Source: a virus (taxonomy: Duplodnaviria > Caudoviricetes). From it: DNA of 40,675 nt. The stretch lies in IMG/VR virus record IMGVR_UViG_3300049000_000025, positions 1 through 40,675 of that record; one strand, 5' to 3'. Position numbers and translations under genes: made by a program. A model generated the notes under the pieces. The model searched no databases, had not been told where the DNA came from, and saw only the letters and a list, made by a program, of their open reading frames with translations. Positions 7,636 to 26,194 of this stretch are shown here, piece by piece. Each line of letters starts with the position of its first letter. Within the stretch, counting starts at the first letter, position 1.

Positions 7636-7662
7636 AACACGAAAGCCCCTCGGACAAGGGGC
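7636..7662 (-). terminator. Probable intrinsic terminator of the lysis operon
   Basis: GCCCCT-tgtccg-AGGGGC followed by TTTCGTGTTT on the minus strand. Confidence 0.55.
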
Positions 7663-7866
7663 AAACGTGGAGTAGCAACATGGAGCAACAATGGTGAATA
7701 TACGATACCACATTTATATCTTGCCAATCTTCAATTCATGCGCCTATTGTGTCGCCATGACAAACGACGACTTCTACCCGCACGCAAAAGCATCCGTCCG
7801 CATGTGGCGCTCCTGCTTCATTACCGGCGCATTCTTCTACGCTATTCTGCTGGGCTGGCTGGTAAG

Positions 7867-7959
7867 TTAGGCATTCTCGTCCATGAACCAGATGAGCGCA
7901 AGCATGGAGAACACTGCTGCTACCACGCCCAGCACGGTCGCTATGGCGTGCCAGTTCAT
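7867..7959 (-). CDS. 30-aa single-TM peptide in the lysis cassette
   Basis: MNWHAIATVLGVVAAVFSMLALIWFMDENA; ATGA coupling. Confidence 0.5.
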   Translation of the reverse strand: MNWHAIATVLGVVAAVFSMLALIWFMDENA

Positions 7960-8246
7960 TTATCCACCACAGGTACTGCCTTGGGATCATCAGGAATCGC
8001 ATGAGCAGCCACCACCTGCGGTTCTGCAATGCCAGGTACCTTTGCCAGCACAGTGTCAGGGTCTTTCTGAATCGCGCCAATCCAGATCTTGCCCACCACC
8101 TGAAATGCGCCAAGCCAGAGAACATGTTTTGGTGCAATCAGCGAGTTGAGCGGAGGCGCGAGGAATGCGGCCGAAGTCGCCAAGGTTGTGGTAAGAATGC
8201 TGGATACGGTGGACTTCCAGCTTGCAAATGCGTTTTGTAAGCTCAT
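7956..8246 (-). CDS. Holin-like membrane protein
   Basis: SWKST..., two hydrophobic segments; coupled to the lysozyme; RBS GGAGG. Confidence 0.6.
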   Translation of the reverse strand: MSLQNAFASWKSTVSSILTTTLATSAAFLAPPLNSLIAPKHVLWLGAFQVVGKIWIGAIQKDPDTVLAKVPGIAEPQVVAAHAIPDDPKAVPVVDK

Positions 8247-8674
8247 ACGGCCTCCAGAAATAGCGCTTTCTCTTTCCCTCTGCGATTCAACAGGCCCTGG
8301 CTGATATTGTTTCCAGACCAGATCCATTGCAAGAACTGAAACGCCGCGCTTTCGGTAGCACCCTCGTTCAGCAGGTGGAGCAGCGTGGATTTCGCCAAAG
8401 CATTGACGCCAACATTGTAGGTAAACGATACGAGCGCGTCGAACTGGTTCTGGTTGATAGGCACTTTGACGAGAGCATTTACCGCTTCCTCAGAGTGCTG
8501 CAAGTCGGCCTTGAGCAGGTCTTCTGCCTCTTCCATGGTGATGTGCTGGCCCATCTTTACGCCGTACGTGGTGCCGTATCCTATAGTAGGTATGCCTGCG
8601 CTGTCCTTGTACGCGTCGGCGCGGAAGCCTTCGAAGCTGCGAACGAGGGCTATGCCCTTCTCAGAGATGTTCAC
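8243..8674 (-). CDS. Endolysin, GH24 phage lysozyme
   Basis: FEG...AYKDSAGIPTIGYG (E-D-T triad), QFDALVSFTYNVG, GLLNRR..E. Confidence 0.95.
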   Translation of the reverse strand: MNISEKGIALVRSFEGFRADAYKDSAGIPTIGYGTTYGVKMGQHITMEEAEDLLKADLQHSEEAVNALVKVPINQNQFDALVSFTYNVGVNALAKSTLLHLLNEGATESAAFQFLQWIWSGNNISQGLLNRRGKEKALFLEAV

Positions 8675-9006
8675 CTCTTAAACAGCCCGAGAGCCTCAAG
8701 GGTACCCACGATGCCGAGGCCGATATAGACGTACGTTGCTATCTTGTCTTGCTTATCTGAGATTTTCCCTTGATTCAACTCGATCTTGTCCAAGGTTTTC
8801 GTATTCTCTTTATGTTTTTCGTCGATCTCGTGGCGCATGTCCACTAAATCCTGCTTAGCGTTTCTCTCTTTATGCGTATCTCGCATGTCGATGTATGCCC
8901 TTAGCCGTTCTTCAAGCGGGGGCTTACCGTTTCCAAGGATGGCATGTTCCAGCCTCTTCACCGTGTCATTCACGCGGAACCAATCCTCGTCACGAATCTC
9001 AGCCAC
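8671..9006 (-). CDS. Coiled-coil protein with C-terminal TM (lysis-associated)
   Basis: Heptad pattern then YVYIGLGIVGTLEALGLF; directly upstream of the lysozyme. Confidence 0.7.
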   Translation of the reverse strand: MAEIRDEDWFRVNDTVKRLEHAILGNGKPPLEERLRAYIDMRDTHKERNAKQDLVDMRHEIDEKHKENTKTLDKIELNQGKISDKQDKIATYVYIGLGIVGTLEALGLFKR

Positions 9007-9794: not shown

Positions 9795-10928
9795 TTATTT
9801 GTTGGAGGTTTTGCTCAAGAATGTGGCCTTATCCATCATGTACTGGTTGGCCAGCCCGCCGAGCTTGAAGGATTTGGAACCTTGCACCACATTCCATTGC
9901 GTTGTGCCATCAAATGAGACCGGCATCGAGTCTGCTGTCACATAAAGCGCACATTTACCGCCCGACGTGGCATCGTAGGTTCCGCCATTGACTTTGACTC
10001 CTGTAGCCGCTCCTTCTACCGTGATCGAGCATCCAGATACGTTGCTTACGGTCTCGCGCGTATAGGTGGCTCCGGTGCCTCCTTTGCCGTCCAACCCGTT
10101 GATTAACGTCCCGCCCGTTCCCATTGCGAGATTGAAGATCTTGTCATCGTGCGCTGTACCGTTGACGCCGATCTGTAAGCCAAAGCCGCGCCCATCGTGG
10201 ATGGAGTTGTAGGCAGCATCGTCGTTCGGGCAGATGGCCGTGATGCCGCCCTCATTGTTCGAAACGTTGTTCTTGTAGAAACCGTTCTTCGAGCAAGTTG
10301 CGTTATAGTACCCGCGATCCTGAATACCCATCTGAGTGACGGTCTGAACCGTGTTCCCCTGAACGAGAGCGCCGGTGAGACCTCCCAGCTGGATACCAGC
10401 TTCGTTATAGTCAAGACCTACCGTGTCATCGATACGGCCGATGTAGTTATTGGTGATCTGCACGCCGGTGATCTGCGGGGCACCCACGTAATTGCAGGCG
10501 AGGACACTTATTCCAGAGTATCCAGTGTGATCGATGATGACGTGATCGATGATAAGCCCGTTCGGATTGACAGTTTTCGAACAAACTGCGGAGATTCCCG
10601 GTCCGGTGGATTTGGTGACGTAGATGTAGGAGATCTTTACATTCTGGTGATTGCCGACAACGATGCCACCCACGATCGTGGGAGATGAGCTACCGGAGCG
10701 CGTGAACGTGCAAGAGTCGCAGGGGACGATAAGCGGTGTGAACCAACTGCTTTTGCCATCCAGGATGAGCGTGTCGCCCTTTTTCATTGCAGAGGTAGCC
10801 TTCACGAGCGAAGCGAACGGCTTGGCAGTATCTGTACCTGCATTGAGGTCGGAACCACTGTTGCTGACATAATAGGTAGCGCAATAGAGAGGTGCGCTGG
10901 CAAGAAGAAGAAGAGCAAGTTTACGCAT
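9795..10928 (-). CDS. Right-handed beta-helix (pectate-lyase-like) protein with signal peptide
   Basis: ATYYVSNSGSD.NAGT..KPFASL.KA..GDT N-cap, Asn/Gly-rich rungs; MRKLALLLLASAPLYC leader. Confidence 0.8.
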   Translation of the reverse strand: MRKLALLLLASAPLYCATYYVSNSGSDLNAGTDTAKPFASLVKATSAMKKGDTLILDGKSSWFTPLIVPCDSCTFTRSGSSSPTIVGGIVVGNHQNVKISYIYVTKSTGPGISAVCSKTVNPNGLIIDHVIIDHTGYSGISVLACNYVGAPQITGVQITNNYIGRIDDTVGLDYNEAGIQLGGLTGALVQGNTVQTVTQMGIQDRGYYNATCSKNGFYKNNVSNNEGGITAICPNDDAAYNSIHDGRGFGLQIGVNGTAHDDKIFNLAMGTGGTLINGLDGKGGTGATYTRETVSNVSGCSITVEGAATGVKVNGGTYDATSGGKCALYVTADSMPVSFDGTTQWNVVQGSKSFKLGGLANQYMMDKATFLSKTSNK

Positions 10929-10934
10929 AGAACC

Positions 10935-11453
10935 TCACTGAATAACTCTAACGTTGTATGTTCCGCTCGCTGGAGTTCCTGCAATCAGAGCGGATATGCG
11001 AACAGTCGCCACGCCTGTAGTGAGTACCGCGCAGTCAATATTGAGGCCAACTGGCAGAAAAGTACCGTCAGCGCGTGTAGCAACGCAATTAGACCCCACA
11101 GAAGCTCCGGTCACCGCTGCTGTACTGGTTATGCTCGTTCCAAGGACAACCAAAGCCCCTCCGAAACTTGCTGTAGACCCAAGGATTGGGGAGAGGAGGT
11201 GATCCCAAGACCATGAACCGACCGAATTATCGCAGATCCAGAGACGGCCATTCGTCGCATCGGTCTGGATGTAAGCAACACCTGCAAGATTCGTAAGGCT
11301 GCACGTTTTTGTTGGCGCTCCCGTGCCGAAATACAGCGGAGCGGCTAGACCTGTGGTGGCGTCCTGTGCCGCCACTGCATGCTCGTCGTGCGCAATCGCA
11401 AGCATGATGACTGCGAGAACCAGAATCGCCAAACCACCGATAAATCTCCGCAT
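10935..11453 (-). CDS. Fibre-like protein with signal peptide
   Basis: GTGAP....G.AYIQTD....LWIC....W fibre motif; MRR + hydrophobic leader; RBS GGGAGG. Confidence 0.7.
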   Translation of the reverse strand: MRRFIGGLAILVLAVIMLAIAHDEHAVAAQDATTGLAAPLYFGTGAPTKTCSLTNLAGVAYIQTDATNGRLWICDNSVGSWSWDHLLSPILGSTASFGGALVVLGTSITSTAAVTGASVGSNCVATRADGTFLPVGLNIDCAVLTTGVATVRISALIAGTPASGTYNVRVIQ

Positions 11454-11467
11454 AGTGCCTCCCTGTT

Positions 11468-14400
11468 CTATTTCGCGTACCAGAGTGTTCCATCGTAAGT
11501 AAAGGTGTACTGAACGCCAGCCACCGCCGTCATTGCCGCTGCGATATTTCCACCGGTTACAGTTGTCCATGCTCCATCCGCGATGAGCGTAAGAGATCCA
11601 ACAAATCCAGCATAGGGTGGAGTTATGGTGGAAATGCTCGATGTTCCCGTAACGTGCGTTACCGATGCAGTCGGAGCAATCGTGGAAGCTGAAGGTATAG
11701 CGGTACCGAGGCTATTCGTTGGTACCGCGCGATAGGTGTATGTGCTCTGCCAGGAACATCCTCCGGTCGAAGCACTTGTGAGCACCACTTTGAAATATCC
11801 TGTGGCCCCGGGAGCTACCAGGGTTCCTCCCGATATTGCTTCAGAGTTGATTCCCGCCATGGTTATGGTGAAGGCTGTCGGATTCTGAACGCGGTACACG
11901 TAGCCGGTAAGTCCTAAGCATTCCGGAAGGCTCCATGTCGCTGCGGCGGTGACCGCCGCTGTCGTGAAGTTGTCGGCCGAGGTAAGGGCCTGGGTGGCCG
12001 AAGTATAGACCCCCGGGGATGTCGCTGTGGTTCCGTCAGCCGATAGGATAGCGCGGGCGAATGTAGGGCCATACGTGCCCGTCTGGAGTGCGGCTGAGGG
12101 ATGAACGCCATCAGGGAAGTTGGTGGTATTCGCTGCTGCTCCGTCTGCCCCAAGGACAGGGTTGGCCGCAATATCAATCAAGTTGTAACTCGCTGCGGAG
12201 GTACTGGCCCTAACCAGTGCGTTGTATTGATTTTTGAGAGAGTCGCACGTAGAGCCAGAATTAACTCCGGCTCCATTTCCAGTGCGGGAAAGCATGGTTC
12301 CAAGGAATACTTGATTCGCTCCCAGCTTTTTCAAGGTGCGGACACCGGCAAGAACGTTCTGCCAAGCTACGGCCAGCGTGAAAGAAGAACCGGACTGGCA
12401 GAGATCATTTGTTGCCGCCGACCCCATGTACCCATAGATCCTTCCTGAAGAGTTATCGAAATACTTCTGGTAGGGCTGGAGACCGGTTGCGATCCAAGCG
12501 GCCATAGTAGATCCGCCGATAGCAGGAATCAGGGGAATGTAGGTCGCGGACGATAGTCCTGTATTTGCCGTCGTGCAAGGTGGCTGGTTGGAATTGACGC
12601 CTGCTTCGATGGACGTTATCCCGCAGAGGATGCGGACGGTGGCGGAAGTGTAGTTGTTGACGAATGAACCGATCTGGAAACCCTTGTTCGTGACGACGTT
12701 ATTCCAAGCCAAGGCATTCTTATTAATTAAGGCGGTCATGTTGGTCTGCGAGGTTGGCTGCGTAGAGTAGACCGCGAATCCCAAGAGGGTGCCGTTCTTC
12801 ATGGCGCAGGTGCCGAGTGTGGTGCAGCTCGTACCCTGAGATCCGAAGACAGCAAAGGGAGCACCCGTTGGCATGGTAACGGAACCTAGGCTGGTCGCCC
12901 CCACGATGGTGGTCAATTGCTGCGTGTTCACATAAGCCCATGTGTTGGTTGTGCCGCCTGAGAAAGTCAGTACTTGCACCTGATCTCCGAGGAGAGCAAG
13001 AGCCTTTAGGGCGGACGCGCCATGGTAATTGAAGATCTCAGCGCCGAGCGTGTTCACTACAGTCTGATCGCCAGCAAGCCAAAAGGAAGAACCGCCAGTT
13101 GGTACGGAACCCAGACCGGCGAATACCCGCCCACCCGTGGAAGTCGCGGCGGCGGCGTTTACCGAAGAGACGACCTGGAAGGTAACGGGGGTGGTAATGG
13201 TCGGGCAGGAGATGTAACCGGTGTTGGTGTTACCGGCGAGGAGGGTCTTACCCACCCATGCCGGATCGGTGGAGGCGGAACCGGTGATATTGCATACCGT
13301 TCCGTTGATGATTCCGGTAAGGGTGGTGCCAGAACCTTCGTGGAGGTCGAACACGTCCACCAGAGTTGCGTCCGTGTTATCGAATGTAGGAAGGGATTGA
13401 CCTGAGTCCGCCAGGCCATTCCCCGCCGGATTGAAAATGGCGACGTTGCCCGCAGTTCCTGAAATGCTGCCCGCAGTGGAAAGTATGTAGTTCGTTCCAT
13501 TCCACGTGTAGCTGGAGGAAGGAAGGGTGTTTTCATCTATCACGGGCACGGAAATGGCTCCCCCGGTGACTGCCGAAATGGTGTCGGTGGGGGTAATGGC
13601 CTTGGGGACGATGACGCGACCACCGCCATTGGCAACACAAGCTGTTACGGCCTTCTGTATGGAGTCGTAAGGAGCGGTAAGGGATGCCGAGGAAACCACG
13701 TAGCAGGTGGTGTTCTGCTGGCGCACATCCATTCTGCCAGTTCCAGAATTGAGCTTCCACGTACTAAGAGAAGAGCTGTTGGACGTAGCAATAGTTCCAG
13801 CCAAAGTAAGATTACCGTCGATTCCGACGTCAGAACCAAAACGAGATGGAAGGCTAAAGAATGCTCCATATGCGGTCTGTACCGAAGCAGTGCCATAGGC
13901 GATTGTGCTGGCGTTCGAGATGTTATAGACCGGAGCGATGGTGGATACGCGGGCAGATGTCTCCATATAGCCCCAGATAATAGCCCCAACAGTTTTGGCG
14001 GATGCGGTTGTTCCGTAGAATCCGCGAGTCAGGCCAAGGAGGTGTGTAGCGTCGATAGAAGACCAGCAAAATGACTCAGCAAAACCAGAAAGAGCGACGT
14101 ATCCGCAGCCGCTGGACGGGAAGCCCGTAGTGGAGGTTACCGTGAAGGAAGTATCAGAGGCAGTAGCAGAAGCCGAAAGAGATAAGGAGGAAGCTGTGGC
14201 GAATAAGTAATTCGTTTGGGAGGCGCATGCAGATCCGGCACAGTAGGGGTTCGCACCGCCTACAAGAATGGTTTGGCCAAGCGCATTTGTGCCCAGCAGC
14301 GGAGCGGAGACGGGCACTGCAAGGCCATTGATCGCCGTGGCATTGGCTGCGGTGGTTGCATTGGCTACTGTGCCTGATGGAATCACATAATCCGTACCGG

Positions 14401-14560
14401 CAGCAGCAGGAGTGCACCCGCCCGCGCCGTCACCCTTCTGGAGGCCAGATCCTGTGGTGATGCAACCCGTTCCACCGCCGCCACCGCCGTTGAGCGGTCC
14501 GCCACCGATCTGCGCAATCAACGGAGAAGCCAGAAAGAGAAGTGCAAACATAAATTTCAT
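11468..14560 (-). CDS. Large tail-fibre/receptor-binding-like protein with SGNH-hydrolase-like domain and signal peptide
   Basis: T/S/G-rich; TSI, ATND and DGVHP SGNH-like blocks; MKFMFALLFLASPLIA-Q leader; RBS AAGGAG. Confidence 0.75.
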   Translation of the reverse strand: MKFMFALLFLASPLIAQIGGGPLNGGGGGGTGCITTGSGLQKGDGAGGCTPAAAGTDYVIPSGTVANATTAANATAINGLAVPVSAPLLGTNALGQTILVGGANPYCAGSACASQTNYLFATASSLSLSASATASDTSFTVTSTTGFPSSGCGYVALSGFAESFCWSSIDATHLLGLTRGFYGTTASAKTVGAIIWGYMETSARVSTIAPVYNISNASTIAYGTASVQTAYGAFFSLPSRFGSDVGIDGNLTLAGTIATSNSSSLSTWKLNSGTGRMDVRQQNTTCYVVSSASLTAPYDSIQKAVTACVANGGGRVIVPKAITPTDTISAVTGGAISVPVIDENTLPSSSYTWNGTNYILSTAGSISGTAGNVAIFNPAGNGLADSGQSLPTFDNTDATLVDVFDLHEGSGTTLTGIINGTVCNITGSASTDPAWVGKTLLAGNTNTGYISCPTITTPVTFQVVSSVNAAAATSTGGRVFAGLGSVPTGGSSFWLAGDQTVVNTLGAEIFNYHGASALKALALLGDQVQVLTFSGGTTNTWAYVNTQQLTTIVGATSLGSVTMPTGAPFAVFGSQGTSCTTLGTCAMKNGTLLGFAVYSTQPTSQTNMTALINKNALAWNNVVTNKGFQIGSFVNNYTSATVRILCGITSIEAGVNSNQPPCTTANTGLSSATYIPLIPAIGGSTMAAWIATGLQPYQKYFDNSSGRIYGYMGSAATNDLCQSGSSFTLAVAWQNVLAGVRTLKKLGANQVFLGTMLSRTGNGAGVNSGSTCDSLKNQYNALVRASTSAASYNLIDIAANPVLGADGAAANTTNFPDGVHPSAALQTGTYGPTFARAILSADGTTATSPGVYTSATQALTSADNFTTAAVTAAATWSLPECLGLTGYVYRVQNPTAFTITMAGINSEAISGGTLVAPGATGYFKVVLTSASTGGCSWQSTYTYRAVPTNSLGTAIPSASTIAPTASVTHVTGTSSISTITPPYAGFVGSLTLIADGAWTTVTGGNIAAAMTAVAGVQYTFTYDGTLWYAK

Positions 14561-14574
14561 AGTGCTCCTTTGAT

Positions 14575-15288
14575 TTACCAAGTGGCCATCGCTACGCGGA
14601 CCCAGGTGTTTGTTGCAATCGCATAGCAGTGGTATGCAATTCCGGAAATGACACTTTCTCGTATTTCACCCGTCACGCCAGTTGCTGTACTGGTGGTCGG
14701 ACAAGGCAGAGAAAATCTAAGCGCCCTGATGGTAGTACTGCCATCATCATTGAGAGATCGAGACAGATTAGGAGCCAACATGCTCCACGATTCAGGGCAA
14801 TTCCCTGGCCCAGAACCCGAGAATCCCCCAAACTCTAAATGCAAACTGTTGTCCTGGATGAAGACTCCGGAACCAGAACCTCCGCAGTAATATCCTTGCA
14901 AATGAGGGGTTATTCGCCATTGCTGATAGGCCGAAGGGAATCCGGAGGCAATACCTCCCACGGAAGCCATCCTGAATCCGCGTGAAACGATGTACGACTC
15001 GCTTCCCATGGGTGTGCCAACGGTTCCATTGCCTACTACCAGGTCAAACCCACCGTTATTGTAGTTGCTGGTCAACCCTCCTGTTAATCCGGCATCTCCT
15101 GATTGGTTGACCGGCGTATAGGGAGCGGCAACGATTTCACGGCTACCATTGGTACCGACGAAGGAAATGGCCTGCGCGGTAGGCTGGCTCACATTACCCG
15201 TACCCGTTCCCTGGTAAAGCGTAGTGGTATTGATCTGCCCATGAGCCATTGATGCAATACCAAAACAAAGAAGTAATAATTTTCTCAT
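14575..15288 (-). CDS. Fibre-like protein with signal peptide
   Basis: C-terminal PTTSTATGVTGEI....Y.C.A.ATNTWVRVAMATW fibre motif; MRKLLLLCFGIASMAHG-Q leader. Confidence 0.72.
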   Translation of the reverse strand: MRKLLLLCFGIASMAHGQINTTTLYQGTGTGNVSQPTAQAISFVGTNGSREIVAAPYTPVNQSGDAGLTGGLTSNYNNGGFDLVVGNGTVGTPMGSESYIVSRGFRMASVGGIASGFPSAYQQWRITPHLQGYYCGGSGSGVFIQDNSLHLEFGGFSGSGPGNCPESWSMLAPNLSRSLNDDGSTTIRALRFSLPCPTTSTATGVTGEIRESVISGIAYHCYAIATNTWVRVAMATW

Positions 15289-16217
15289 TAGTGCCCCTTA
15301 GCTTCCCAGCAAGCATGTACAACGTTGGTGATATTGCTTGCGCCGCCACCGCCGATAAGCACCGGGCATGTGAAATTGACCGTAAATCCGTTCACCGATA
15401 TCGCGGAGGCATGGCACTCGATGGGATAGATCGTGGAACCATCAGGATTATTGTCGGGTGTGCAAGTAACGCTTGGAGCCACCGTAAAAGCGCCGCCAGG
15501 AAACGTCACGGACACCGCAGATTCGGATACTCCCGTAGGCGAAGCAGCGCTTACTCCCCATTTCATCTTTGTGCCATCGGGGAAAGTCAGCGAAGATCCG
15601 TTGCTATCGTCCACGCGAGCAGGAAATGTTGCTCCATTGCTTGCGGAGGTCAGTCTGCCCAACGCATCGACGGTGACCGTAGCCGAAGTGTAGGTGCCTG
15701 CGGTAACGCCTGAAGGCCCAAGACCCACCACGGTAGCCGGAATGGTGGCATCGTCCGTAATCACGAAAGGCGATAGGAAGTTCAACGAGGGTCGCTGCGT
15801 TTGCGCTGTACCTGCCGCGTCCACTTCCTGATAGAAGAACTTCGTCTTCGGATTGACATCGACCACAATGCGGCTTAGCGGGTAATCGGGAAGGTTACCA
15901 AGCGGAATCGTGCCAGTGATGTCGCCCGCGCTGATCGTGGTTATGCCCGATATCTGGTCTGCCGTCCACTGGATAACCCCATTCGCGTCTTCAAGCACGA
16001 ACTTGTAAACGAGATTCCCCAAGAATAATGCAGCTTGACCATTTTCATCCAACACGATTGGATTCGTCTGCGCGGTGCCGCCGCCAGCATCGGTATACGT
16101 AGCCTGCGGGATGAGCGTTCCTGCTGCATAAGTGAATAGCTGACCGCCAACGAGTGGCAGGCCGTCATTGTCGGTAGCCTTGAAAACTGGATCGTAAAAC
16201 GGAATCAAAAGGCTCAT
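15288..16217 (-). CDS. Short tail fibre/tailspike anchor protein (virion-binding N-terminus)
   Basis: D.DG.PL.GG.LFTYAAGT..P.ATYTD..G...TNPIVLD..G.A head-binding motif; C-terminal WG..VTFP..AF domain. Confidence 0.8.
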   Translation of the reverse strand: MSLLIPFYDPVFKATDNDGLPLVGGQLFTYAAGTLIPQATYTDAGGGTAQTNPIVLDENGQAALFLGNLVYKFVLEDANGVIQWTADQISGITTISAGDITGTIPLGNLPDYPLSRIVVDVNPKTKFFYQEVDAAGTAQTQRPSLNFLSPFVITDDATIPATVVGLGPSGVTAGTYTSATVTVDALGRLTSASNGATFPARVDDSNGSSLTFPDGTKMKWGVSAASPTGVSESAVSVTFPGGAFTVAPSVTCTPDNNPDGSTIYPIECHASAISVNGFTVNFTCPVLIGGGGASNITNVVHACWEAKGH

Positions 16218-17635: not shown

Positions 17636-19110
17636 TTGATGCCTGCTAACTTCTTGAAGTGGTCAGCCTGCGCCTGGGAGTCGAAGGGATGCACGGAGCC
17701 GTCTGGCGCAGCGACAGAAATCTTTCCGCCCGAAGCTTCCCCAGATCTACCACCAACAAAGCTACGCAAAGATTCCTGCGCATTCTTTACGGTGTTCGGG
17801 AGTTGCGACTCGTAAACCTTGCTGGGTGCGGCATCCTTCCATTGCTGCTCGAAGGTATCCAGCTTATCAAGCATAGACCCCGCCTGCGTCTTGATCGCAA
17901 TGTCGCGGTTAAAAGTCGCGTTGAGTGTCGCCTTTAGATCCTTGATGGAAGTGTCTGTCGTGTGACCATAGAAACCAGCCAATTCAGGCGCAAGGGTATC
18001 TACCTTGTTCTGGTATGCTTGATGCGCCGCACTTCCGGGGATTCGGCTTGCCACAGTATTAAGTGCAGCCAACTCCTGCAAGTGTTTCGCTACCGTTGCG
18101 CCAGAGTTAAGCTGCTGGCCTTCTTTGCCGCCACCCTCAATTGTCTTGACGAGAGCCGTGTACGCATCAATTTTGCTCGTATCGAAATCAGGGTACTTCT
18201 GCGCAACGGCGGAGATGAGTCCAGGATTCTTGGTAAGAATACGCGAAAGATTGCCCGCATTGATGCGCCCGCTTCCGATGGCATCCACAACGGGAAGCGG
18301 TTGACCATCGTCTCCCAGCCCAGCTTGGTTTTTCTGGAACTGTAGCCGACCATTTTCGATGGCTATCTTCTGCCTGTCCCGAGCATCAGTCAAATTTTGC
18401 CCACGTCTGGTGGTTGCATCCGACTGCGCACGGGCACTCAATTCTCCTTGCTTGTACATGGCATCAGCAGCATTCCGGCTGGCTTGTTGCGCAAGATCGA
18501 CAGACTTTTGGTTTTGGTCTATCTGCTTTGCTTGCAAATCCATCACTTCTTTTGCCTTTAGTGCTTGACTTTGCACTCCGACCAGCGCTTGCGGGTCGAA
18601 CTGTTCAGGAAGCTCCGTAGGATCAGAAAGCTTGCTTTGAATCGCATATTGTCGAAGTTGCTGGTAAACCTGCGGCTGCAACTCTTTCGGAGCGGATAGA
18701 ACTCGAGTAGCGAAACCGCTCATCAGATCAACATGCTTCCCGAGGTTTTCGAGCGCAGTTTTTTGTTGATCCAGCATATCCTTCTGTTTCGTAAGATCCT
18801 GCTTTTGCCATTCCTGCTGCAACCCAAAGGCAGCATTTCCTTGTTTGGATTCCTGCAATTTTTGCAGCACAAGAGCACGATTCAATGTCGGAAGACCTGT
18901 GTCCTTATCAATCGTAAGTCCGGTCGTCATGGCATCGTTGACGGCGGAAGCAGTCTCTTGCTGCTTCTGGATTCCCTGGATCTCGAGATCGCGCACCTGC
19001 CGCTGCTGTGCTGCGTCCTTCAACTGCGCGGCAACCTGATACTGACGATACGGGTCTGCGGGCTGGTCAACAGGCTTGACGCCGAGGATGATAGACGGGT
19101 CGAGGGCCAT
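17632..19110 (-). CDS. DNA ejection / internal virion protein
   Basis: MALDPSIILG N-terminus, Q/A-rich coiled coils. Confidence 0.7.
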   Translation of the reverse strand: MALDPSIILGVKPVDQPADPYRQYQVAAQLKDAAQQRQVRDLEIQGIQKQQETASAVNDAMTTGLTIDKDTGLPTLNRALVLQKLQESKQGNAAFGLQQEWQKQDLTKQKDMLDQQKTALENLGKHVDLMSGFATRVLSAPKELQPQVYQQLRQYAIQSKLSDPTELPEQFDPQALVGVQSQALKAKEVMDLQAKQIDQNQKSVDLAQQASRNAADAMYKQGELSARAQSDATTRRGQNLTDARDRQKIAIENGRLQFQKNQAGLGDDGQPLPVVDAIGSGRINAGNLSRILTKNPGLISAVAQKYPDFDTSKIDAYTALVKTIEGGGKEGQQLNSGATVAKHLQELAALNTVASRIPGSAAHQAYQNKVDTLAPELAGFYGHTTDTSIKDLKATLNATFNRDIAIKTQAGSMLDKLDTFEQQWKDAAPSKVYESQLPNTVKNAQESLRSFVGGRSGEASGGKISVAAPDGSVHPFDSQAQADHFKKLAGIK

Positions 19111-19841
19111 TACAGGGTCATCCCGTACGCCGTCAGTGGGTTCGTCTTCATGCTGTTATTGAAACTGTACTGATTGGCGGCTCCGGAGACTCCATTGATG
19201 ATGCCGTTATAGGCATTCTGCTGGCCGATGATCCCTGCCGCCTGCGCGTTTCCTGCCTGCGTCTGAAGATTCGCAACACCCGAAGCCGTGCCCAGATCCG
19301 CGCTCGATGCGCTATTCGTAGCATTCAAGCCGAGACCGGCTACGCCAGCAAGCTGGTTGTAATTCTGTTGCGAGGTGGCAAGATAGCGATTGTAAGCATC
19401 GCCGTACGTCGTATTTGCCAATCCAGTTGCATACTGAGTCTGCGCCTTGAGTGTTCCGCCTGAAAGTGCATTCCCCTTTGCGGCGGCGCTGGAATTGATC
19501 GCGTTCTGGCCCTGCTGAAGCGTGAACTGATATCCCGGATCGCTCATGAAGTCGCTCATGTTGAAAGCGGTGGGATTGGTTACACTGCTGGTCAGCTTGC
19601 TAAGCGCCGAAGTTCCCGCCGCTTGGTAGGGCTGGTAGTTCTGCTGGACGCCTTGGTTGGCAGTATTGAGGGTATTCTGCGCATTCTGTGAGGCGTTTTG
19701 CTGCGCTGTAGCAGCGTCAGATGCGGCCCCGGCACCCATAATGCCGCCGATGGTACTTCCGATAGCTCCGACCACGCTGCCGAGCTTCATCCGCGCGTGC
19801 TGGCGATAGCGTCGGTCGTCGTATACCCAGGTTTCCATCAT
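19110..19841 (-). CDS. DNA transfer protein (P22 gp7-like)
   Basis: Gly-rich N-terminus, PY..AG..AL, DPGYQF...QG..AI..SAAA.G..LSG.TLKA. Confidence 0.8.
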   Translation of the reverse strand: MMETWVYDDRRYRQHARMKLGSVVGAIGSTIGGIMGAGAASDAATAQQNASQNAQNTLNTANQGVQQNYQPYQAAGTSALSKLTSSVTNPTAFNMSDFMSDPGYQFTLQQGQNAINSSAAAKGNALSGGTLKAQTQYATGLANTTYGDAYNRYLATSQQNYNQLAGVAGLGLNATNSASSADLGTASGVANLQTQAGNAQAAGIIGQQNAYNGIINGVSGAANQYSFNNSMKTNPLTAYGMTL

Positions 19842-19874
19842 GCTATGACCTTCTCACGGTTGCCCAAGCCATAT

Positions 19875-20324
19875 TTACTCCAAAGTTCGGCAAAATGTTC
19901 TTTCCACTTCATGATAACCAATTCTCAAGAAGAGTGAGGATAAATTCTTATCCTTCTTGCAGCCGACGTACAAATTCTTCACTCCAATGCTTTTCAACGA
20001 TGCCTCCGTTGCTCGAAATAGGTTCACGCCTGACCACCCTTTGCGGTGTTCTGGAAGCATAAAGAAGAATGTCGTCGAAGCAACCACGCTGTCTTTGGAA
20101 TGAATATGTGGGCGAATGATGCACATTTGATAGCCCACGATCTTTTTATCTTCCCGCGCCACAATGAAGTGAACCGCCCCCATGTTTTCAAGTTCCGCAT
20201 AGGTGAGCCAATCAAAGCCGAGGCAGATCCCTTCAAAGTCTGGAGTGACGTCCTGCCAATGCGCCCTAAATATCGGCTCTAGCTCTGCGCGATTCTCCAT
20301 CAGGCCTTCGCGGGAGAATGTCAT
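19875..20324 (-). CDS. GNAT acetyltransferase
   Basis: FFMLPEHRKGWSGVNL acetyl-CoA motif; position before ejection genes. Confidence 0.8.
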   Translation of the reverse strand: MTFSREGLMENRAELEPIFRAHWQDVTPDFEGICLGFDWLTYAELENMGAVHFIVAREDKKIVGYQMCIIRPHIHSKDSVVASTTFFFMLPEHRKGWSGVNLFRATEASLKSIGVKNLYVGCKKDKNLSSLFLRIGYHEVERTFCRTLE

Positions 20325-20662
20325 TGGATCAATAGGGCGCTCCCCTGCGCGACGATGGAGCCTGACTGATCGGCTACCGCCTGGATGGTCGAATTCGAGG
20401 GGAGAATGTGGCCCTCCGCCGGGTAGCATTCGTAAGTTTCCCCCGGAGCCAGCGTTCTGGACTTCACAAGAGCGGTCGAATCATCCACCGGCTGGCTTGG
20501 ATTCAGGAGATAGACCGAAATGTTCCTCGCCGTACCTGTAGGATTCGCAAAAGTCATCTTGGAGATGCGCATGCTGGAGTTTGCGGGAACCGTATAAAGC
20601 GTCGTCGCCGCTGAGCCTACCTGCTGTGCGCGAAAGATCTGCGTGGGCGTAATCGTTGCCAT
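20321..20662 (-). CDS. Small beta-rich virion protein
   Basis: TTLYTVPAN..., TLAPGETYEC motifs; within tail operon. Confidence 0.65.
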   Translation of the reverse strand: MATITPTQIFRAQQVGSAATTLYTVPANSSMRISKMTFANPTGTARNISVYLLNPSQPVDDSTALVKSRTLAPGETYECYPAEGHILPSNSTIQAVADQSGSIVAQGSALLIQ

Positions 20663-21286
20663 TTATTCTCCGTTCGCATGCCAAAAGGCTTGCACTGATG
20701 CAGGATGCACTACTGAGGAAACGAAATTTGCCGTGAATCCCGTCGCTGTTACGGCTGATGGATAGCAAGTACTATCTGCGGTATTGGCGACGCAAACTAC
20801 GGTCGGAACATTGGTAAACGGTACCGGGAAAATCACAGCAACGGCACCGATACCCAGAGGCTGCTCCGCGGACGTGCCCCATTCGATCTTCGTCCCATCG
20901 CCAAACGCCAAAGATTCGCCATTGCTATTCGATACCTTAGACGGACCACCATTCGAAGCCGCTGTAACCCTTCCATACTGGTCTACAGTGACGTTTGCGG
21001 ATGTGTACGGCCCCGGAACTACGGAAGTGGCCTCTAAGCCGCGTGGCGTGTCAGTAAACAGGGCACCCAAATAGGGTAATGACTGGGTAACGTCCAGAGT
21101 TCCGCTGACGCCCTGCTGCTCACTGTCCAGGAGTAAGGATTCGAAGTCGGCCGACGTTCCACCGCCACCCGTAGATCGGCCAATCACAGAGAACACGTTC
21201 TGAAAGAATAGCGCCCACGGCCTAGTTATCAAGCCCGTGTTCGGGTCTACTACAGCATTCTGGATAGGTGGGATAAAACCTGCCAT
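20663..21286 (-). CDS. Tail needle/fibre-like protein
   Basis: VDPNTGLITRPWALFF N-terminus after the gp10-like gene; VTVD.YGRVTAASNG repeat. Confidence 0.65.
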   Translation of the reverse strand: MAGFIPPIQNAVVDPNTGLITRPWALFFQNVFSVIGRSTGGGGTSADFESLLLDSEQQGVSGTLDVTQSLPYLGALFTDTPRGLEATSVVPGPYTSANVTVDQYGRVTAASNGGPSKVSNSNGESLAFGDGTKIEWGTSAEQPLGIGAVAVIFPVPFTNVPTVVCVANTADSTCYPSAVTATGFTANFVSSVVHPASVQAFWHANGE

Positions 21287-22699
21287 TTAGCGGTCACCTG
21301 ATAAATCAAGGTACGCATTGCTGATGAAGCAGCGCACTGGATCTGTCACCTTCAGCTCAAATACACGGTTTCGCGCCTGTCCTAGCCGACGATAGATGAC
21401 GCGCTTCGTGCCTTCACCGATTTTTCCCATGGAAGCGTACTTTTCATTGCTCCACGTCTTGCCTGAATCATCGGAAAATCGCAGGATAGCTTGCGGATCG
21501 GTCACACCATCTCCAAGCCCGGTCTCCATATCAATTTCGATGGAATGAAAGGTAATGCGCGTATTCTCACTGTTGATGACTGGTGCTCTGCGGAGGCGCG
21601 TGATTGCGTTTCCAGCGTCCGTGTAAACATCCGGCGTCATTTCATAGATATTTCCGTCCGCATAGGAACCCACAAGGTGCTTGCCAAAGCCGAAGCAGTG
21701 ATTGCGCGGCAACGCCTGCTCCAGCACTCCATCTCCCGTGTATGCCCGCTCGTGCCACATGCCTGTTATCGCGTCAAAGGCCCACGTTTTCCCCGCTGAG
21801 GGAAAGTTCAGGACGTAGAACGAGTGCCCGTCTTGCTGATACGTCCAGGCTTCGGCGTCACTGATCTTTGGATAACGCTGTATTTCCTGCTCCATGGCGT
21901 GCGTTGAGACGCGAACCGGCGCATATCCTTGCGCACGAAGGACAACACCTTGCCCATATTCATCCTTTGCCAACCAAAATACCGTGTTTTCGAGCAATTT
22001 AGGGCTGAACTTAGCTGCGCAGCCACGCTTGATGAAAGCACCCTGAATTCTCTGAAAGGGGAAATTCGGGTCTCCAGAGTCGTACCAAACCTCTGTACTC
22101 GTATCCCCGAACAGCCAAACGTTTTGACCATCGGAGAGCAGCGATATGAGCTTATCGGGTGAACCTTCTGCGGCGGCAAACGCCAAACCGTCAATATCCG
22201 GTGTATAAAGGCCAGTGATCCAGAAATCCTGTGTTCCAGGCTGATTGAAGATGAAATACCCATCCTGAAAAGCTACCGTATCGCCGCCATGGAAGTCTTC
22301 ATCCAGAATTCGCGCGAATGCTCCCGTCGTCAGGTCATACGTGTAGCCGTTTGGCCCATCCACAATGAAGAGCACAAGTCCGTTATCCGCTATGGACACA
22401 ATTCCATCATGCGTTAGCAGAGAACCCAACTGCGTGTTCGTGTAGTCCGCATGCAGCTCTACCAGCGTATTGCCGGAAACTTCGAAAACCCTACCCAGAG
22501 ACGATGCGTAGAAGCAGCGACTTGGATTTGTGCCATTGATGTTGGTGAGCAGCTTCAAACCCGGCGTACCGATGTACGTAATTGCTGCTTTCCCCGCTCC
22601 AGATTCGTCCTGCTGCGGGATAAGGTTGATGCACCTCTGGCAGTCCGCGCTCACGCTCTGGAGGGAGTAAGTGCTCGAAACGAAGCCCTTGTACAACAT
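21287..22699 (-). CDS. Packaged-DNA stabilisation / tail hub protein (P22 gp10-like)
   Basis: 470 aa beta-rich; DGYFIF, AEGSPD, G..STEVW, SDD.G.TWS, RRLG..R.RVFEL. Confidence 0.85.
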   Translation of the reverse strand: MLYKGFVSSTYSLQSVSADCQRCINLIPQQDESGAGKAAITYIGTPGLKLLTNINGTNPSRCFYASSLGRVFEVSGNTLVELHADYTNTQLGSLLTHDGIVSIADNGLVLFIVDGPNGYTYDLTTGAFARILDEDFHGGDTVAFQDGYFIFNQPGTQDFWITGLYTPDIDGLAFAAAEGSPDKLISLLSDGQNVWLFGDTSTEVWYDSGDPNFPFQRIQGAFIKRGCAAKFSPKLLENTVFWLAKDEYGQGVVLRAQGYAPVRVSTHAMEQEIQRYPKISDAEAWTYQQDGHSFYVLNFPSAGKTWAFDAITGMWHERAYTGDGVLEQALPRNHCFGFGKHLVGSYADGNIYEMTPDVYTDAGNAITRLRRAPVINSENTRITFHSIEIDMETGLGDGVTDPQAILRFSDDSGKTWSNEKYASMGKIGEGTKRVIYRRLGQARNRVFELKVTDPVRCFISNAYLDLSGDR

Positions 22700-23409
22700 C
22701 AGCCAACCTCGCCAGTGATTCTATTGAACGATCCGCCGGGCAAGCCAACATCGCAAACCAGCGTGATATCGGTAGCGTTCAGGCGCTGGATATTTTCCTT
22801 CGACTGCTGCGCGATTGCTACTACGGAAGCTGAAGCATCTTTGCCGTACTCCGGGGCCAACTCAATCGCGAGGTTGTAACGAAATGCCCTCTCATACCCC
22901 GGAGCGAGCACAAGCGTCTGGTTGATGCTTGGCACCTGGTCGAGCAAATCTGAGGTGTAAAAGCGAATCCTCGTACCAGCCTGCGGCACCGGGTACACAA
23001 ACAGTTGGTAAAGCTCAATGCCGGGATTCAGAAAGTACCCCTGCGGAATCGGCGTTTGGTAGCCAATCACTGCGATGGAGGAATACTGATCCAGACTCAA
23101 TCCATATAGCGGCAAGAACACGTCCTGAGGCGCATTCTGATAGGCCACAGAGAAGTCGGTGATCGCGGTAGGTCGTGGGATATCAATATCGCCACCCGGC
23201 CCGATGGTATAGACCTGCTTAGCCGTTGTGAGGGTGATGATGCGCTCAGTCACTCCCATTACGGACAGGCTCTCCGTGCTCCACGATTCGATCATGGAGT
23301 TAAAAGAAGCTAAGGCGTCCTGCGCTCCGGATGCGCTTACCGCCTCACCTTCAGCCAAGACGCCCAGCAGCCGCAAACTTCCATTGATGAGACCGCGAGC
23401 AGTTGCCAT
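22699..23409 (-). CDS. Head-tail adaptor (P22 gp4-like)
   Basis: TAR.LI..SLRLLGVLA.GE...DAL..N.M..SW; YNLAIELAPEYG. Confidence 0.8.
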   Translation of the reverse strand: MATARGLINGSLRLLGVLAEGEAVSASGAQDALASFNSMIESWSTESLSVMGVTERIITLTTAKQVYTIGPGGDIDIPRPTAITDFSVAYQNAPQDVFLPLYGLSLDQYSSIAVIGYQTPIPQGYFLNPGIELYQLFVYPVPQAGTRIRFYTSDLLDQVPSINQTLVLAPGYERAFRYNLAIELAPEYGKDASASVVAIAQQSKENIQRLNATDITLVCDVGLPGGSFNRITGEVG

Positions 23410-23418
23410 GCGCTTATC

Positions 23419-23694
23419 TTACTTCGTCTTCTTCGCTACTGCTACCTTTTCGACACCATGCACAGGTTCCGCTCCGAACTTGGAATCCGCGCCAGTCTTC
23501 TCATTTGCGTGAATATCCTGCACGGGCACCTTGGCTTCAGCGACTTCGCCCGTCGCCTCGTACTCGATTGCCTTTACGGGCTTCTCGTGCCAGCCTTTGC
23601 CAAGCGCGTCCTGCTCATCCTGGTTATGAACGGTTACCGGCTTATCGTGGCCATGATAGAGCATTTTCGGGAATTCGTGATGTTTGGTAGTCAT
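23419..23694 (-). CDS. Small head-associated hypothetical protein
   Basis: EFPKMLYH...V....E..ALG.GW...P; follows coat gene; RBS GAGGT. Confidence 0.7.
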   Translation of the reverse strand: MTTKHHEFPKMLYHGHDKPVTVHNQDEQDALGKGWHEKPVKAIEYEATGEVAEAKVPVQDIHANEKTGADSKFGAEPVHGVEKVAVAKKTK

Positions 23695-23707
23695 ATATCA
23701 CCTCAAA

Positions 23708-23736
23708 GAAAATAAGGGCCAGCCGAAGCCAGCCCT
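23708..23736 (-). terminator. Intrinsic terminator after the coat gene
   Basis: GGGCTGGC-TTCG-GCTGGCCC-TTATTTT on the minus strand. Confidence 0.75.
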
Positions 23737-23747
23737 TTTTTTACGGT

Positions 23748-24965
23748 TTATGCCCAGACTCTTACGCCAGCTTCTGGGCGCGTCACAGCGAAACCCCACA
23801 AAATGTCGAAGCGAGAGAGCCAGACATCGTTGGTGGAATCGTAGTCGCGGACGAAGCGCATGCGCACGCCGGAGTCAGGATCTGATGCCTGATACGCCAT
23901 ATCGACGCCGTTCGGAACCTCAAGAGGAACCGAAGCGAAGGTATAAGCATCAGGGTTGAAGACCAGATTCTGGGGAGACTGCAAGCCAGCAGCAGCGAAG
24001 AATGCCAGAGCAGCGCCGTTTGCAGGCGAGTTTGTCACATTCTGGTAGTTGCCGGTGGACACAATGGCAGGAGAGATCGGGATGGTAGCAGCTCCCGTTC
24101 CGTCCGAAGAGACTGCCGCAGTGACCGTGAACTGCTGAAGCTGTCCCGTGCTGAGCTTGTTCATCGGATTGACAGAGAACACACCCGCAACCGTGAACAC
24201 ATCACCCTGGTTGAGGCGAAGCGCAGCAGCAGCCGTCCAGCCGTTCGTGACGAGCGTAGAGCCGGTCTGGTTGGCTCCATTGACGAGAGGCGTACCACCC
24301 AGAGGCCCAAAGGTCTGCGTCGGCATGTTCTGATCCATGCCCCAAGACATACCGAGAGTACCCTGCGACACATCACCGGTGAGGTACTGGTCGCTAATCG
24401 TCTTGCCGGGATTGAAGAGCCCTTTGAGGTTATCCACGAGAGACGCATTGGTCAGCGGGTCCATGACAACCGTACGGCCAGCACGAGGAACAGCAAGCTT
24501 GTCCAGCTTAGCCATCGCATTCACGAAAGGCGTAAGGCCAGTGGGAGTGGTGCCGGGAGTTCCAACGGAGTTGGCGGTACCCGAAACTGCCAGAGCAACG
24601 GCCTGAGCATCCACGAGATTCGCCAGCGTGCTCATCGCATTTACGAGATAACGCTTGCGGAAATCGGTAATGGTAAGGGCGAAGTCGGCCGAAGTGAACT
24701 GGAAGGCGATGTGATTCTGGTTCAGAATCGACATCACGGTATTCTGTTCGGTCACATCCTGAATGAAGGCCACGCGGCCATTCGCGCCGACGAACTGTAC
24801 CGGCTTGCGAATCAGCACCGTGTTGCCCGGCTTGTTGCCGTTGTAGGTGCCGTCGAAGTCCGACTGGTAATCCTTGTTGACGTGGCGGATGAACGCCAGG
24901 TTGTTGAGGTAAAGCTCAAGGGCATCGCGAGCGATGATCTGGGGGGTGAGAAGGGTATTCGCCAC
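23748..24965 (-). CDS. Major capsid protein (P22 coat gp5 family)
   Basis: MANTLLTP.II.R.AL..., G.TV.IRKP, GDVFTVAGV, RFDILWG...RPE. Confidence 0.9.
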   Translation of the reverse strand: MANTLLTPQIIARDALELYLNNLAFIRHVNKDYQSDFDGTYNGNKPGNTVLIRKPVQFVGANGRVAFIQDVTEQNTVMSILNQNHIAFQFTSADFALTITDFRKRYLVNAMSTLANLVDAQAVALAVSGTANSVGTPGTTPTGLTPFVNAMAKLDKLAVPRAGRTVVMDPLTNASLVDNLKGLFNPGKTISDQYLTGDVSQGTLGMSWGMDQNMPTQTFGPLGGTPLVNGANQTGSTLVTNGWTAAAALRLNQGDVFTVAGVFSVNPMNKLSTGQLQQFTVTAAVSSDGTGAATIPISPAIVSTGNYQNVTNSPANGAALAFFAAAGLQSPQNLVFNPDAYTFASVPLEVPNGVDMAYQASDPDSGVRMRFVRDYDSTNDVWLSRFDILWGFAVTRPEAGVRVWA

Positions 24966-24977
24966 TTTTTACGCTCC

Positions 24978-25766: not shown

Positions 25767-25821
25767 TTTATTGTCCTTTGCGCGATTAACGTTCGCGTTG
25801 ACGGTAATGAGAATACATTAT

Positions 25822-25853
25822 CACGAGCAGCCACCATGAGATAGCTGCTCGTG
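25822..25853. terminator. 10-bp perfect hairpin between genes (terminator or processing site)
   Basis: CACGAGCAGC-N12-GCTGCTCGTG; no clear U-tract. Confidence 0.45.
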
Positions 25854-25862
25854 CAGGAAAAA

Positions 25863-26093: not shown

Positions 26094-26194
26094 ATTTTCT
26101 CCATGAAATTTACGGATTTTACTGCGTTGAAGGAAGTAGAGCGCAATCTGTACTACGCCCAAAAGAAAGAGAGAATCTGAGGTCGTCAGCCCTG

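Follow-up and report, generated by a model that had tools for sequence, protein, structure and literature searches.

The usual view of tailed phages is that their particles are finished before the cell lyses. To our knowledge, the known P22-type tailspikes begin at the head-binding domain, carry no leader and fold in the cytoplasm. KP32 gp37/gp38, G7C, CBA120 and the T4 long fibre halves are adaptor-plus-spike receptor-binding systems, and the secondary spikes of such systems are cytoplasmic and leaderless. Virion proteins with Sec leaders are known from the filamentous phages (pIII and pVIII), and the receptor-binding domains of pIII contain periplasmic disulfides; inoviruses are assembled at the membrane without lysis. 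In P22-type podophages attachment of the tailspike is the last assembly step; for P22, mixing of heads and purified protein suffices, as stated in the accessible part of bioRxiv 10.1101/2021.09.20.461090.

The phage studied here (the window, i.e. the whole stretch of 40,675 nucleotides that was analysed) has the portal/gp4/gp10/ejection gene order of the P22-type podophages, and one of its genes (16217-15288) encodes the docking domain of the tailspikes P22 gp9 (1LKT), Sf6 gp14, Pam1 (7EEQ) and Pan3 (9VYG). Unlike the P22-type tailspikes, the putative spikes encoded downstream in the window and the head-binding protein of its relatives have Sec leaders and paired cysteines. As in the KP32-type systems, a particle-anchored protein is followed by candidate anchorless spikes, and the best structural alignment of the tip of the third one is that with KP32gp38 (Z 7.2, rmsd 2.4, 79 residues); a branching domain as in the adaptor-plus-spike systems was not identified in the window. 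With pIII and pVIII the window shares the Sec leaders, but its phage is tailed and lytic, and the capsid is cytoplasmic.

Two further systems are close in one feature each. According to the accessible sections of PMC7949094, Pantoea stewartii WceF carries an export signal ahead of a head domain like that of P22, has a trimeric tailspike fold and acts on exopolysaccharide (EPS). It differs in being encoded in a chromosomal EPS operon, in its Tat signal and in not being part of a virion, whereas the leaders of the window are short and Sec-type and belong to the late operon of a phage. Leaders of signal peptidase I that leave Gln at +1, as in the window, are described in the accessible part of PMC10367356 for Porphyromonas phage proteins, which are there without assigned function and are read as envelope modifiers, not as fibres. 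This Q-rule is a feature of Bacteroidetes signal peptides (PMC5837995); the word Acidobacteria is absent from the main text of that paper. A literature search at the level of listings and the first lines of abstracts, mostly outside subscription papers, turned up no description of Sec leaders on the fibres of tailed phages.

Four leader genes in the late operon of a P22-like phage

The phage is P22-like, with a likely host among the soil Acidobacteria. Its P22-type core (19110..28695, minus strand) comprises portal, scaffold, coat, gp4-like adaptor, gp10-like hub, acetyltransferase and gp7-like ejection protein (PF16510, PF11651, PF11650; phrog_578, phrog_598), all of them leaderless. The window phage and an Edaphobacter prophage form one gp10 clade (SH-aLRT 99) in a quick version of the tree, the label-shuffle test of which had leader-bearing phages under both labels. 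The tail-needle slot is occupied by a leaderless gene (20663..21286, minus strand) whose tip is paralogous to that of the anchor protein (43-45%).

The receptor-binding slot of the late operon contains four co-oriented, tightly packed genes on the minus strand (15288-9795), described in the earlier note as consecutive fibre- or depolymerase-like genes with Sec leaders. All four reading frames are intact and were recovered as claimed, as were their leaders with a rule-based detector. The best starts are at 15288 (237 aa), 14560 (1030 aa), 11453 (172 aa) and 10928 (377 aa). The start of gene 1 overlaps the stop codon of the anchor gene, and genes 2-4 begin 6-14 nt past the preceding stop, behind SD-like motifs. 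The lysis cassette (7645..9006, minus strand) consists of a membrane protein, a leaderless lysozyme and a holin-like gene. The strongest minus-strand terminator-like site (7662-7645) lies in the region of this cassette, and the late transcript with the four leader genes likely ends there.

Two further leader-bearing genes, paralogs at 29932-29522 and 29325-28918 on the minus strand, are located between terminase and portal. Their products have 4 Cys each and Gln at +1, and their structural look-alikes in the Atlas are unnamed viral clusters (TM 0.76-0.78). They are possibly exported capsid decoration proteins. Scans of viral contigs with the single protein 29932-29522 gave no match.

Detection and conservation of the leaders

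The leaders were called by our own detector (basic n-region, hydrophobic h-region, small residues at -3/-1), not by SignalP, and all four genes have these features of a Sec/SPase I leader. Among the minus-strand ORFs of at least 90 aa in the window only genes 1-4 and the two paralogs were flagged, and in a control set of 78 phage loci a single one had a leader, either on its anchor protein or on a gene of at least 150 aa downstream; the four leaders are therefore not due to chance. In homologs of genes 1-3 the leader is conserved while its sequence varies, and the diverging leaders retain the n/h/c anatomy and the Gln at +1. The cleavage sites of the earlier note were kept except for the third leader, which likelier ends one residue later; Gln then stands at +1, where most members of the gene 3 family have it.

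In a count independent of the predicted cut, [AGS]-Q follows the hydrophobic stretch in 49/59 leader proteins compared with 14% of background segments, and the same was seen in 10/15 host proteins. Another count, Gln at +1 in 52/59, was discarded because the cut rule itself favoured Gln.

An even number of cysteines was found in 54 of 59 hand-picked leader-bearing proteins versus 57 of 113 leaderless tailspikes, and in 29/34 cluster representatives of the leader proteins (p 2e-5). The set of 59 omits Tunturi_5 gp339/gp340, the lipoprotein-type P0011, truncated ORFs, the post-coat leader proteins of L018, L040, L043 and L148, and the downstream leader proteins of a Bdellovibrionota-associated clade (L004, L007, L010, L022, L146), whose leader proteins have Cys counts of 7, 1 and 0 and thus weaker pairing. 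The parity, together with conserved cysteine pairs, suggests that disulfides form in the periplasm.

Domains of the leader proteins

A recount gave the same mature Cys numbers as the earlier note (4, 18, 4 and 8), and the SGNH-like domain and beta-helix that it had seen correspond to SGNH blocks in gene 2 and PF13229 in gene 4. None of the four proteins has a whole-protein match in PHROGs, and neither gene 1 nor gene 4 matched any of 50,697 phage records (tblastn).

Gene 1 (sp1; 14575..15288, minus strand) encodes a short fibre-like protein with a predicted Sec leader of 17 aa, Gln at +1 and 4 mature Cys. Its last 52 aa match the tail protein phrog_17312 (E 4.9e-4). From seven non-self matches six were fetched, three of which (P0138, P0139, P0142) have a leader; two leaderless ones resemble gene 1 in no more than the C-terminal 45 aa, and the sixth match is an artefact of a repeat.

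Gene 2 (sp2; 11468..14560, minus strand; predicted leader 16 aa, Gln at +1, 18 mature Cys) continues after the leader with a Gly/Thr-rich shaft, a candidate LamG-like domain (about 385-650), an SGNH esterase-like domain (about 645-830) and a C-terminal module, which is also present in the leaderless tailspike P0016. The SGNH match (PF13472, E 7.5e-4) is under the Pfam cut-off, which homologs exceed, and Ser650, Asn718, Asp817 and His820 fall in what we take to be SGNH-type blocks, including Asp-x-x-His. Thirteen of 15 homologs have Sec-type leaders, one has a lipoprotein-type leader and one is leaderless. The sole match in a cultured phage is the 'tail fiber protein' gp342 of Tunturi_5 (35% over residues 715-961), which contains PF13385 and PF13472.

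Gene 3 (sp3; 10935..11453, minus strand) has a predicted leader of 29 aa with a long polar c-region, found in 11/11 homologs, and 4 mature Cys. The leader begins M-R-R, with an Arg pair that its family does not conserve. The mature part consists of a small N domain and a fibre-tip/H-lectin-like beta-sandwich with two conserved Cys pairs (51/74 and 123/141), and the tip resembles tailspike and pyocin-fibre tips at a moderate level (Z 5-7). Trimer prediction had been proposed in the earlier note as a check. Modelled as a homotrimer, gene 3 scored 0.79 against 0.00 for the best control, above a mark that is reached by 20/30 solved pairs and 1/23 single chains; at least 78% of contacts agree between runs and pLDDT is at least 84. 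This result may stem from likeness to solved lectin-tip trimers.

Gene 4 (sp4; 9795..10928, minus strand) has a predicted leader of 16 aa with Cys at -1 and no Gln at +1, and 8 mature Cys. Its right-handed beta-helix passes the cut-off of PF13229 (E 1.2e-6), and from its sequence the protein is likely a polysaccharide lyase or hydrolase. The mature N-terminus weakly matches tail-fibre PHROGs (E 1.7e-4).

The anchor protein and its relatives

The gene directly upstream (15288..16217, minus strand) encodes a leaderless protein of 309 aa, a candidate docking adaptor with a head-binding domain (residues 1-95), a short shaft and, at residues 205-309, an H-lectin/gp53-like tip (PF09458, E 0.008). 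This tip contains 4 Cys, so that even numbers occur outside exported proteins as well. The head-binding domain matches Pam1 7EEQ (E 1.1e-15) and Pan3 9VYG in profile searches and Pan3, Pam1 and P22 1LKT in Foldseek. A missed leader on this protein was excluded: the start and the preceding stop codon overlap, and what would be encoded further upstream in the same frame lacks hydrophobic character. The four leader proteins gave neither a PHROG match to a head-binding or anchor domain nor a BLAST match to the anchor; judged by this they would not be P22-type tailspikes but at most anchorless secondary spikes.

In related phages the leader is found on the head-binding protein itself. Five complete related records were compared: four have a single head-binding-domain protein with a leader directly before the domain (the start is uncertain in G406), and the fifth is without head-binding domain. 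Among 120 long anchor homologs 113 are leaderless and 6 have the leader, with the cleavage site at the domain start; a seventh that was flagged, P0097, was dropped because its start is likely mis-called. Another anchor family, phrog_1640, which is unrelated to the first, was found behind a leader in a protein ending with the gene 3 tip (L192). In L179 it forms a short adaptor without leader, and a fibre with a leader comes next, the same arrangement as in the window.

The Edaphobacter prophage has four leader genes in the equivalent slot ahead of the lysozyme, and its anchor ortholog carries a leader. A search of 401 Acidobacteriota genomes with the head-binding profile gave no match beyond the seed genome, so that such prophages are rare in this sample. 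Scans of viral contigs with the anchor as a single protein gave no match.

Proposed assembly and alternatives

Export and oxidative folding of the leader proteins are well supported at the sequence level by the conserved leaders, the Gln at +1 and the cysteine parity, and the predicted export signals conserved in relatives make it likely that host-recognition parts fold outside the cytoplasm. The earlier note had joined to this the docking of the exported parts on the particle. For the lineage, docking is supported by the leader before the sole head-binding domain in the four complete relatives; for the window's own four proteins, on which no docking surface was identified, we infer it.

We lean towards exported, disulfide-bonded appendages that dock on finished particles at lysis. 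The co-oriented, tightly packed late genes encode conserved hydrophobic leaders, which are predicted to be cleaved by signal peptidase I after Sec export, mostly leaving Gln as in host proteins. Disulfides would form in the periplasm, and trimers at least for gene 3; head, hub and leaderless anchor would assemble in the cytoplasm. Once holin and lysozyme act, the exported parts would bind the particle via the anchor tip or each other. In the variant of the relatives the head-binding-domain protein itself would be exported. Gene 4 may work in part, or even entirely, as a free enzyme that degrades the capsule.

It seems somewhat probable that in an Acidobacteriota tailed-phage lineage virion production is split between two compartments. 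The capsid and the core of the tail would be made in the cytoplasm, whereas the fibres and spikes, and perhaps also capsid decorations, would be made in the periplasm via Sec, signal peptidase and Dsb, with lysis as the final, infectivity-giving step. If true, a compartment-mixing step would be added to tailed-phage assembly, and infectivity would depend on the Sec and Dsb functions of the host and perhaps on its glutaminyl cyclase. Disulfide-braced appendages would become possible, co-infecting phages or prophages could swap spikes at lysis, and module exchange with host EPS loci would be accounted for.

A more tentative reading is that the exported proteins stay off the virion as late periplasmic or released glycan enzymes and lectins. 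They might thin or deacetylate the capsule and ease release, or mask receptors against progeny re-adsorbing to the lysing cell. The leaderless anchor would then be the real fibre, and it could be the sole receptor-binding one since it has its own lectin-like tip. The missing anchor domain in the four proteins fits this reading, and so do host EPS loci with leader-bearing tailspike-like proteins that contain modules of the window proteins, e.g. an 866-aa PF12708 protein adjoining Wzc/Wza-like genes. The single gene 4 match in 201 family genomes is chromosomal, and WceF is a precedent for a P22-like head domain behind an export signal, there Tat, in a bacterial EPS enzyme (accessible part of PMC7949094). 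Matches of genes 2 and 3 in Acidobacteriaceae genomes (n=13, assigned partly by eye) fell into 4 phage-like loci, 3 polysaccharide/glycosyltransferase loci and 6 other or unclear ones. Evidence against an off-virion role is that the only head-binding-domain protein of the relatives bears the leader and that genes 1-3 have modules in common with tail proteins. The genes are also embedded in the structural operon, with 7 promoter-like sites around them versus 9.2 expected (sigma-70 scan; the model may not fit this host) and a GC content (0.51-0.56) similar to that of their neighbours. These values, together with the tight packing, also bear on a lysogenic-conversion moron, which would have its own promoter and terminator and an atypical composition. 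Secreted glycan-modifying proteins, the alternative given in the earlier note, are nevertheless still a live explanation, above all for gene 4.

It is improbable that the leaders do not serve export of the virion form but act as uncleaved membrane tethers or chaperone-like propeptides, or are bypassed by an internal-start leaderless isoform packed in the cytoplasm. A Met is present inside the leader of genes 1 and 3, but near the cleavage site there is none in genes 2 and 4 or in the majority of homologs. The accessible part of PMC10367356 mentions capsid proteins with predicted signal peptides thought to be cut by phage proteases; here, the n/h/c anatomy and the Gln are kept despite divergence and the cysteine parity suits an oxidising compartment. 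Recent capture of host secretome genes without phage role, or an artefact of leader prediction, is very unlikely and largely refuted by conservation: homologous modules do occur on host chromosomes, but slot and leader trait recur in podoviruses, myoviruses, a prophage and cultured isolates, only that one control locus was positive, and four frames are intact.

Leader genes in cultured Tunturiibacter phages

Leader-bearing tail-locus genes in runs of 5 and 6, like those of the window, were found in the cultured Tunturiibacter phages Tunturi_1 and Tunturi_5 (PMC11924767), whose head-tail modules are unrelated to those of the window. The genes concerned are gp12, 13, 14, 16 and 17 of Tunturi_1 (PP887698) and gp337-342 of Tunturi_5 (PP885688). 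No head-binding domain was found among 85 Tunturi phage genes examined. Virion proteomics of these phages was not found in the literature, in a search that covered the main text of PMC11924767; the word 'signal' occurs twice in that text, at least once in the title of a reference. Tunturi_3 (0/24 genes examined) and Tunturi_4 (0/17) are leaderless and have the same host genus, so that export is not required for infecting it. Tunturiibacter thus has two cultured phages with the trait and two without, and the presence of the trait in Tunturi_1 and Tunturi_5 makes it testable now.

Leader-bearing genes in the late operon

The virus record is linear, comprises 40,675 bases and is 71% complete according to CheckV. 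A late module of the P22 type lies on the minus strand, with terminase, portal (PF16510), scaffold, coat (PF11651), a gp4-like adaptor, a gp10-like hub, an acetyltransferase and ejection proteins. These are followed by the gene for a 309-aa protein (16217–15288), here called the anchor, by genes 1 to 4 (14575–15288, 11468–14560, 10935–11453 and 9795–10928) and by the lysis cassette. Genes 1–4 are tightly packed within the late operon and have ordinary GC content; promoter-like sites are not in excess (7 vs. 9.2 in shuffled sequences), and the strongest terminator-like site of the minus strand lies after the lysis genes.

The earlier note had described these four open reading frames as starting with Sec-type signal peptides (leaders) and as encoding 4, 18, 4, and 8 cysteines in their mature parts, and re-examination bore this out. 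The rule-based detector used for calling leaders flagged six minus-strand reading frames in the window, namely genes 1–4 and a pair of paralogs located between the terminase and portal genes (29932–29522 and 29325–28918; 135 aa and four cysteines each). The look-alikes of the paralogs in the Atlas are unnamed viral clusters; the paralogs themselves possibly encode an exported capsid decoration. By the same rule-based calls the leaders are kept in homologs of three of the genes: in all 11 homologs of gene 3, in 13 of 15 of gene 2 (one further leader being of the lipoprotein type and one homolog leaderless) and in three of the six matches fetched for gene 1. In related P22-like phages a leader-bearing gene directly follows the coat gene (L018:8023-8499, L040:7800-8705, L043:7937-8701, L091:3445-4188, and L148:7100-8041); in L091 a second one is situated immediately after gp10.

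Domain structure of the four proteins

The fibre motifs, SGNH-like domain and beta-helix noted previously were found again. The product of gene 1 is short and fibre-like, and its final 52 residues match a tail-protein family; gene 4 encodes a beta-helix protein. Gene 2 encodes a low-complexity shaft, a LamG-like region (a lead only, as few features are shared despite an Atlas score of 0.91), an SGNH domain retaining its catalytic residues, and a C-terminal module also present in a leaderless tailspike. Its sole match in 50,697 phage records is gp342 of the cultured Tunturiibacter phage Tunturi_5, annotated "tail fiber protein".

Gene 3 ends in a beta-sandwich with tailspike tips, H-type lectins and pyocin fibre tips as top structural matches (moderate, Z 5–7). 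It was predicted to form a homotrimer, with a score of 0.79 vs. 0.00 for the best control, contact agreement of at least 78% and pLDDT of at least 84. In calibration, the mark was reached by 20 of the 30 solved pairs tried and by 1 of the 23 single chains; the result for gene 3 possibly arises through likeness to solved trimers. Cys51 and Cys74 are invariant across the alignment, and Cys123 and Cys141 occur in 11 of 12 rows, the row without both carrying another pair.

Even counts of mature cysteines were found in 54 of 59 leader-bearing proteins of a hand-picked set and in 29 of its 34 cluster representatives (p 2e-5); the figure for leaderless tailspikes is 57 of 113. Pairing looks weaker in a Bdellovibrionota-associated clade. 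In 49 of the 59 proteins, vs. 319 of 2,234 background segments, a small residue and then Gln come just past the hydrophobic stretch; among host proteins taken from Acidobacteriaceae loci the number is 10 of 15. This pattern, in phage and host proteins alike, resembles the Q-rule described for Bacteroidetes (PMC5837995).

The anchor and its relatives

Residues 1–95 of the anchor form a tailspike head-binding domain with profile matches to the Pam1 and Pan3 spikes (E 1e-15) and Foldseek matches to Pan3, Pam1, P22, and Sf6. The window's anchor is leaderless and has a lectin-like tip of its own at its end; leaders are frequent on the corresponding protein of relatives. Five complete related records were searched; four contain a single head-binding domain, in each case preceded by a leader (start uncertain in genome G406), and one contains none. 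In the Edaphobacter prophage leaders are present on the anchor ortholog and the next three genes, before the lysozyme gene. Among the 120 long homologs listed (of 127), six have a leader ending at the start of the head-binding domain; one further flagged homolog was dropped as a likely mis-start. Of 80 viral loci taken as a broad control, an anchor reading frame could be called in 78, and one of these loci had leaders; the trait is therefore lineage-restricted. A second anchor family, phrog_1640, lies directly behind a leader in locus L192 and is a leaderless adaptor followed by a leader-bearing fibre in L179.

The anchor (15288-16217, minus strand) and the needle-slot protein (20663-21286, minus strand) have shaft repeat and tip in common (43–45%). 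The anchor has the look of a fusion in which a head-binding domain was joined to a needle-slot protein copy. Its four cysteines may reflect loss of a leader. In a second clade (L004, L007, L010, and L146), which includes a Bdellovibrionales contig, two leaderless head-binding proteins precede leader-bearing fibres.

Leaders also occur in cultured Tunturiibacter phages, being found on 5 of 25 genes examined in Tunturi_1 (gp12, 13, 14, 16, and 17, with gp14 counted from its second Met) and flagged on 7 of 19 in Tunturi_5 (the six consecutive genes gp337–342 and a doubtful one). None was found among 24 genes examined in Tunturi_3 and 17 in Tunturi_4. The portions consulted of the paper describing these phages give morphology and no virion proteomics (PMC11924767).

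Proposed docking at lysis or free secretion

We considered two explanations for the leaders. According to the first, the proteins of genes 1–4 would be exported late in infection and would undergo cleavage and disulfide bonding in the periplasm; they would attach to the particle when the inner membrane is opened by holin and lysozyme. We regard this as the most likely reading, with modest confidence, and are fairly confident of the same docking for the lineage's leader-bearing head-binding proteins. Addition of the P22 tailspike is described as the last step of assembly, and one that takes place when purified protein and heads are simply mixed (bioRxiv 10.1101/2021.09.20.461090), so that docking at lysis would need no cytoplasmic factor for this type of head-binding domain. 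For the window's four proteins the docking reading is weaker because none has a detectable anchor domain and no docking surface was found on them.

Second, the four proteins could be free secreted glycan modifiers. We consider this rather unlikely, and most plausible for gene 4; it stays the main rival because of host homologs, the precedent of the Pantoea stewartii EPS enzyme WceF, and the possibility that the anchor alone is a complete fibre. Acidobacteriaceae chromosomes hold leader-bearing proteins with the same modules as genes 2 and 3: with 301 genomes searched for each, the gene 3 family matched in 8 and gene 2 in 5. By locus, four of these 13 matches are phage-like, three lie in polysaccharide or glycosyltransferase loci and six elsewhere or in unclear settings. 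WceF shows that a protein with an export signal ahead of a P22-like head domain can be an EPS enzyme outside the virion, and this enzyme is among the nearest precedents (PMC7949094), as are Q-rule proteins reported for Porphyromonas phages (PMC10367356).

A literature search found no description of Sec leaders on fibres or spikes of tailed phages. Coat proteins of filamentous phages are a further near precedent for Sec leaders on phage proteins. As tested, the leader-bearing proteins are a variant of known receptor-binding proteins, new in the kind of variant; if they do associate with the virion, tailed phages would have a new route of assembly.

Tailspike-like proteins in host polysaccharide loci (L180:7594-10194, L178:8480-10141, and L187:6720-10151; leaders seen on the first two) have tip modules in common with genes 2 and 3 and are candidate WceF-like proteins of Acidobacteriota. 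A recurrent phage- or GTA-like locus in Acidobacteriaceae chromosomes (L177, L183, and L184, in genomes G442, G090, and G001) contains terminase, portal, a leader-bearing fibre-like gene of 884–1540 aa and a HipA-like kinase. L183 and L184 additionally contain head-tail-like genes and adjoin apparent purK/purE. This locus is possibly a domesticated element.

Probable host

The top gp10 match in GTDB genomes (53%) is the prophage on a 554-kb Edaphobacter contig. In a quick gp10 tree the window and this prophage form one group (SH-aLRT 99), and a Bryobacteraceae contig falls in a neighbouring clade; these sequence relationships make an Acidobacteriota host likely. Two contigs of a Bathyarchaeota MAG (L149 and L150), placed among bacterial-type podophages in the gp10 tree, are likely misbinned phage contigs.

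Two plus-strand regions lie opposite the late operon. One of them, 9216-9716, separates gene 4 from the lysis cassette and encodes a 166-aa multi-pass membrane protein with no family match, a possible exclusion or moron gene. At 6178-6841 a gene with a lipoprotein-type leader and a small downstream gene, with no PHROG match, form a possible spanin pair.
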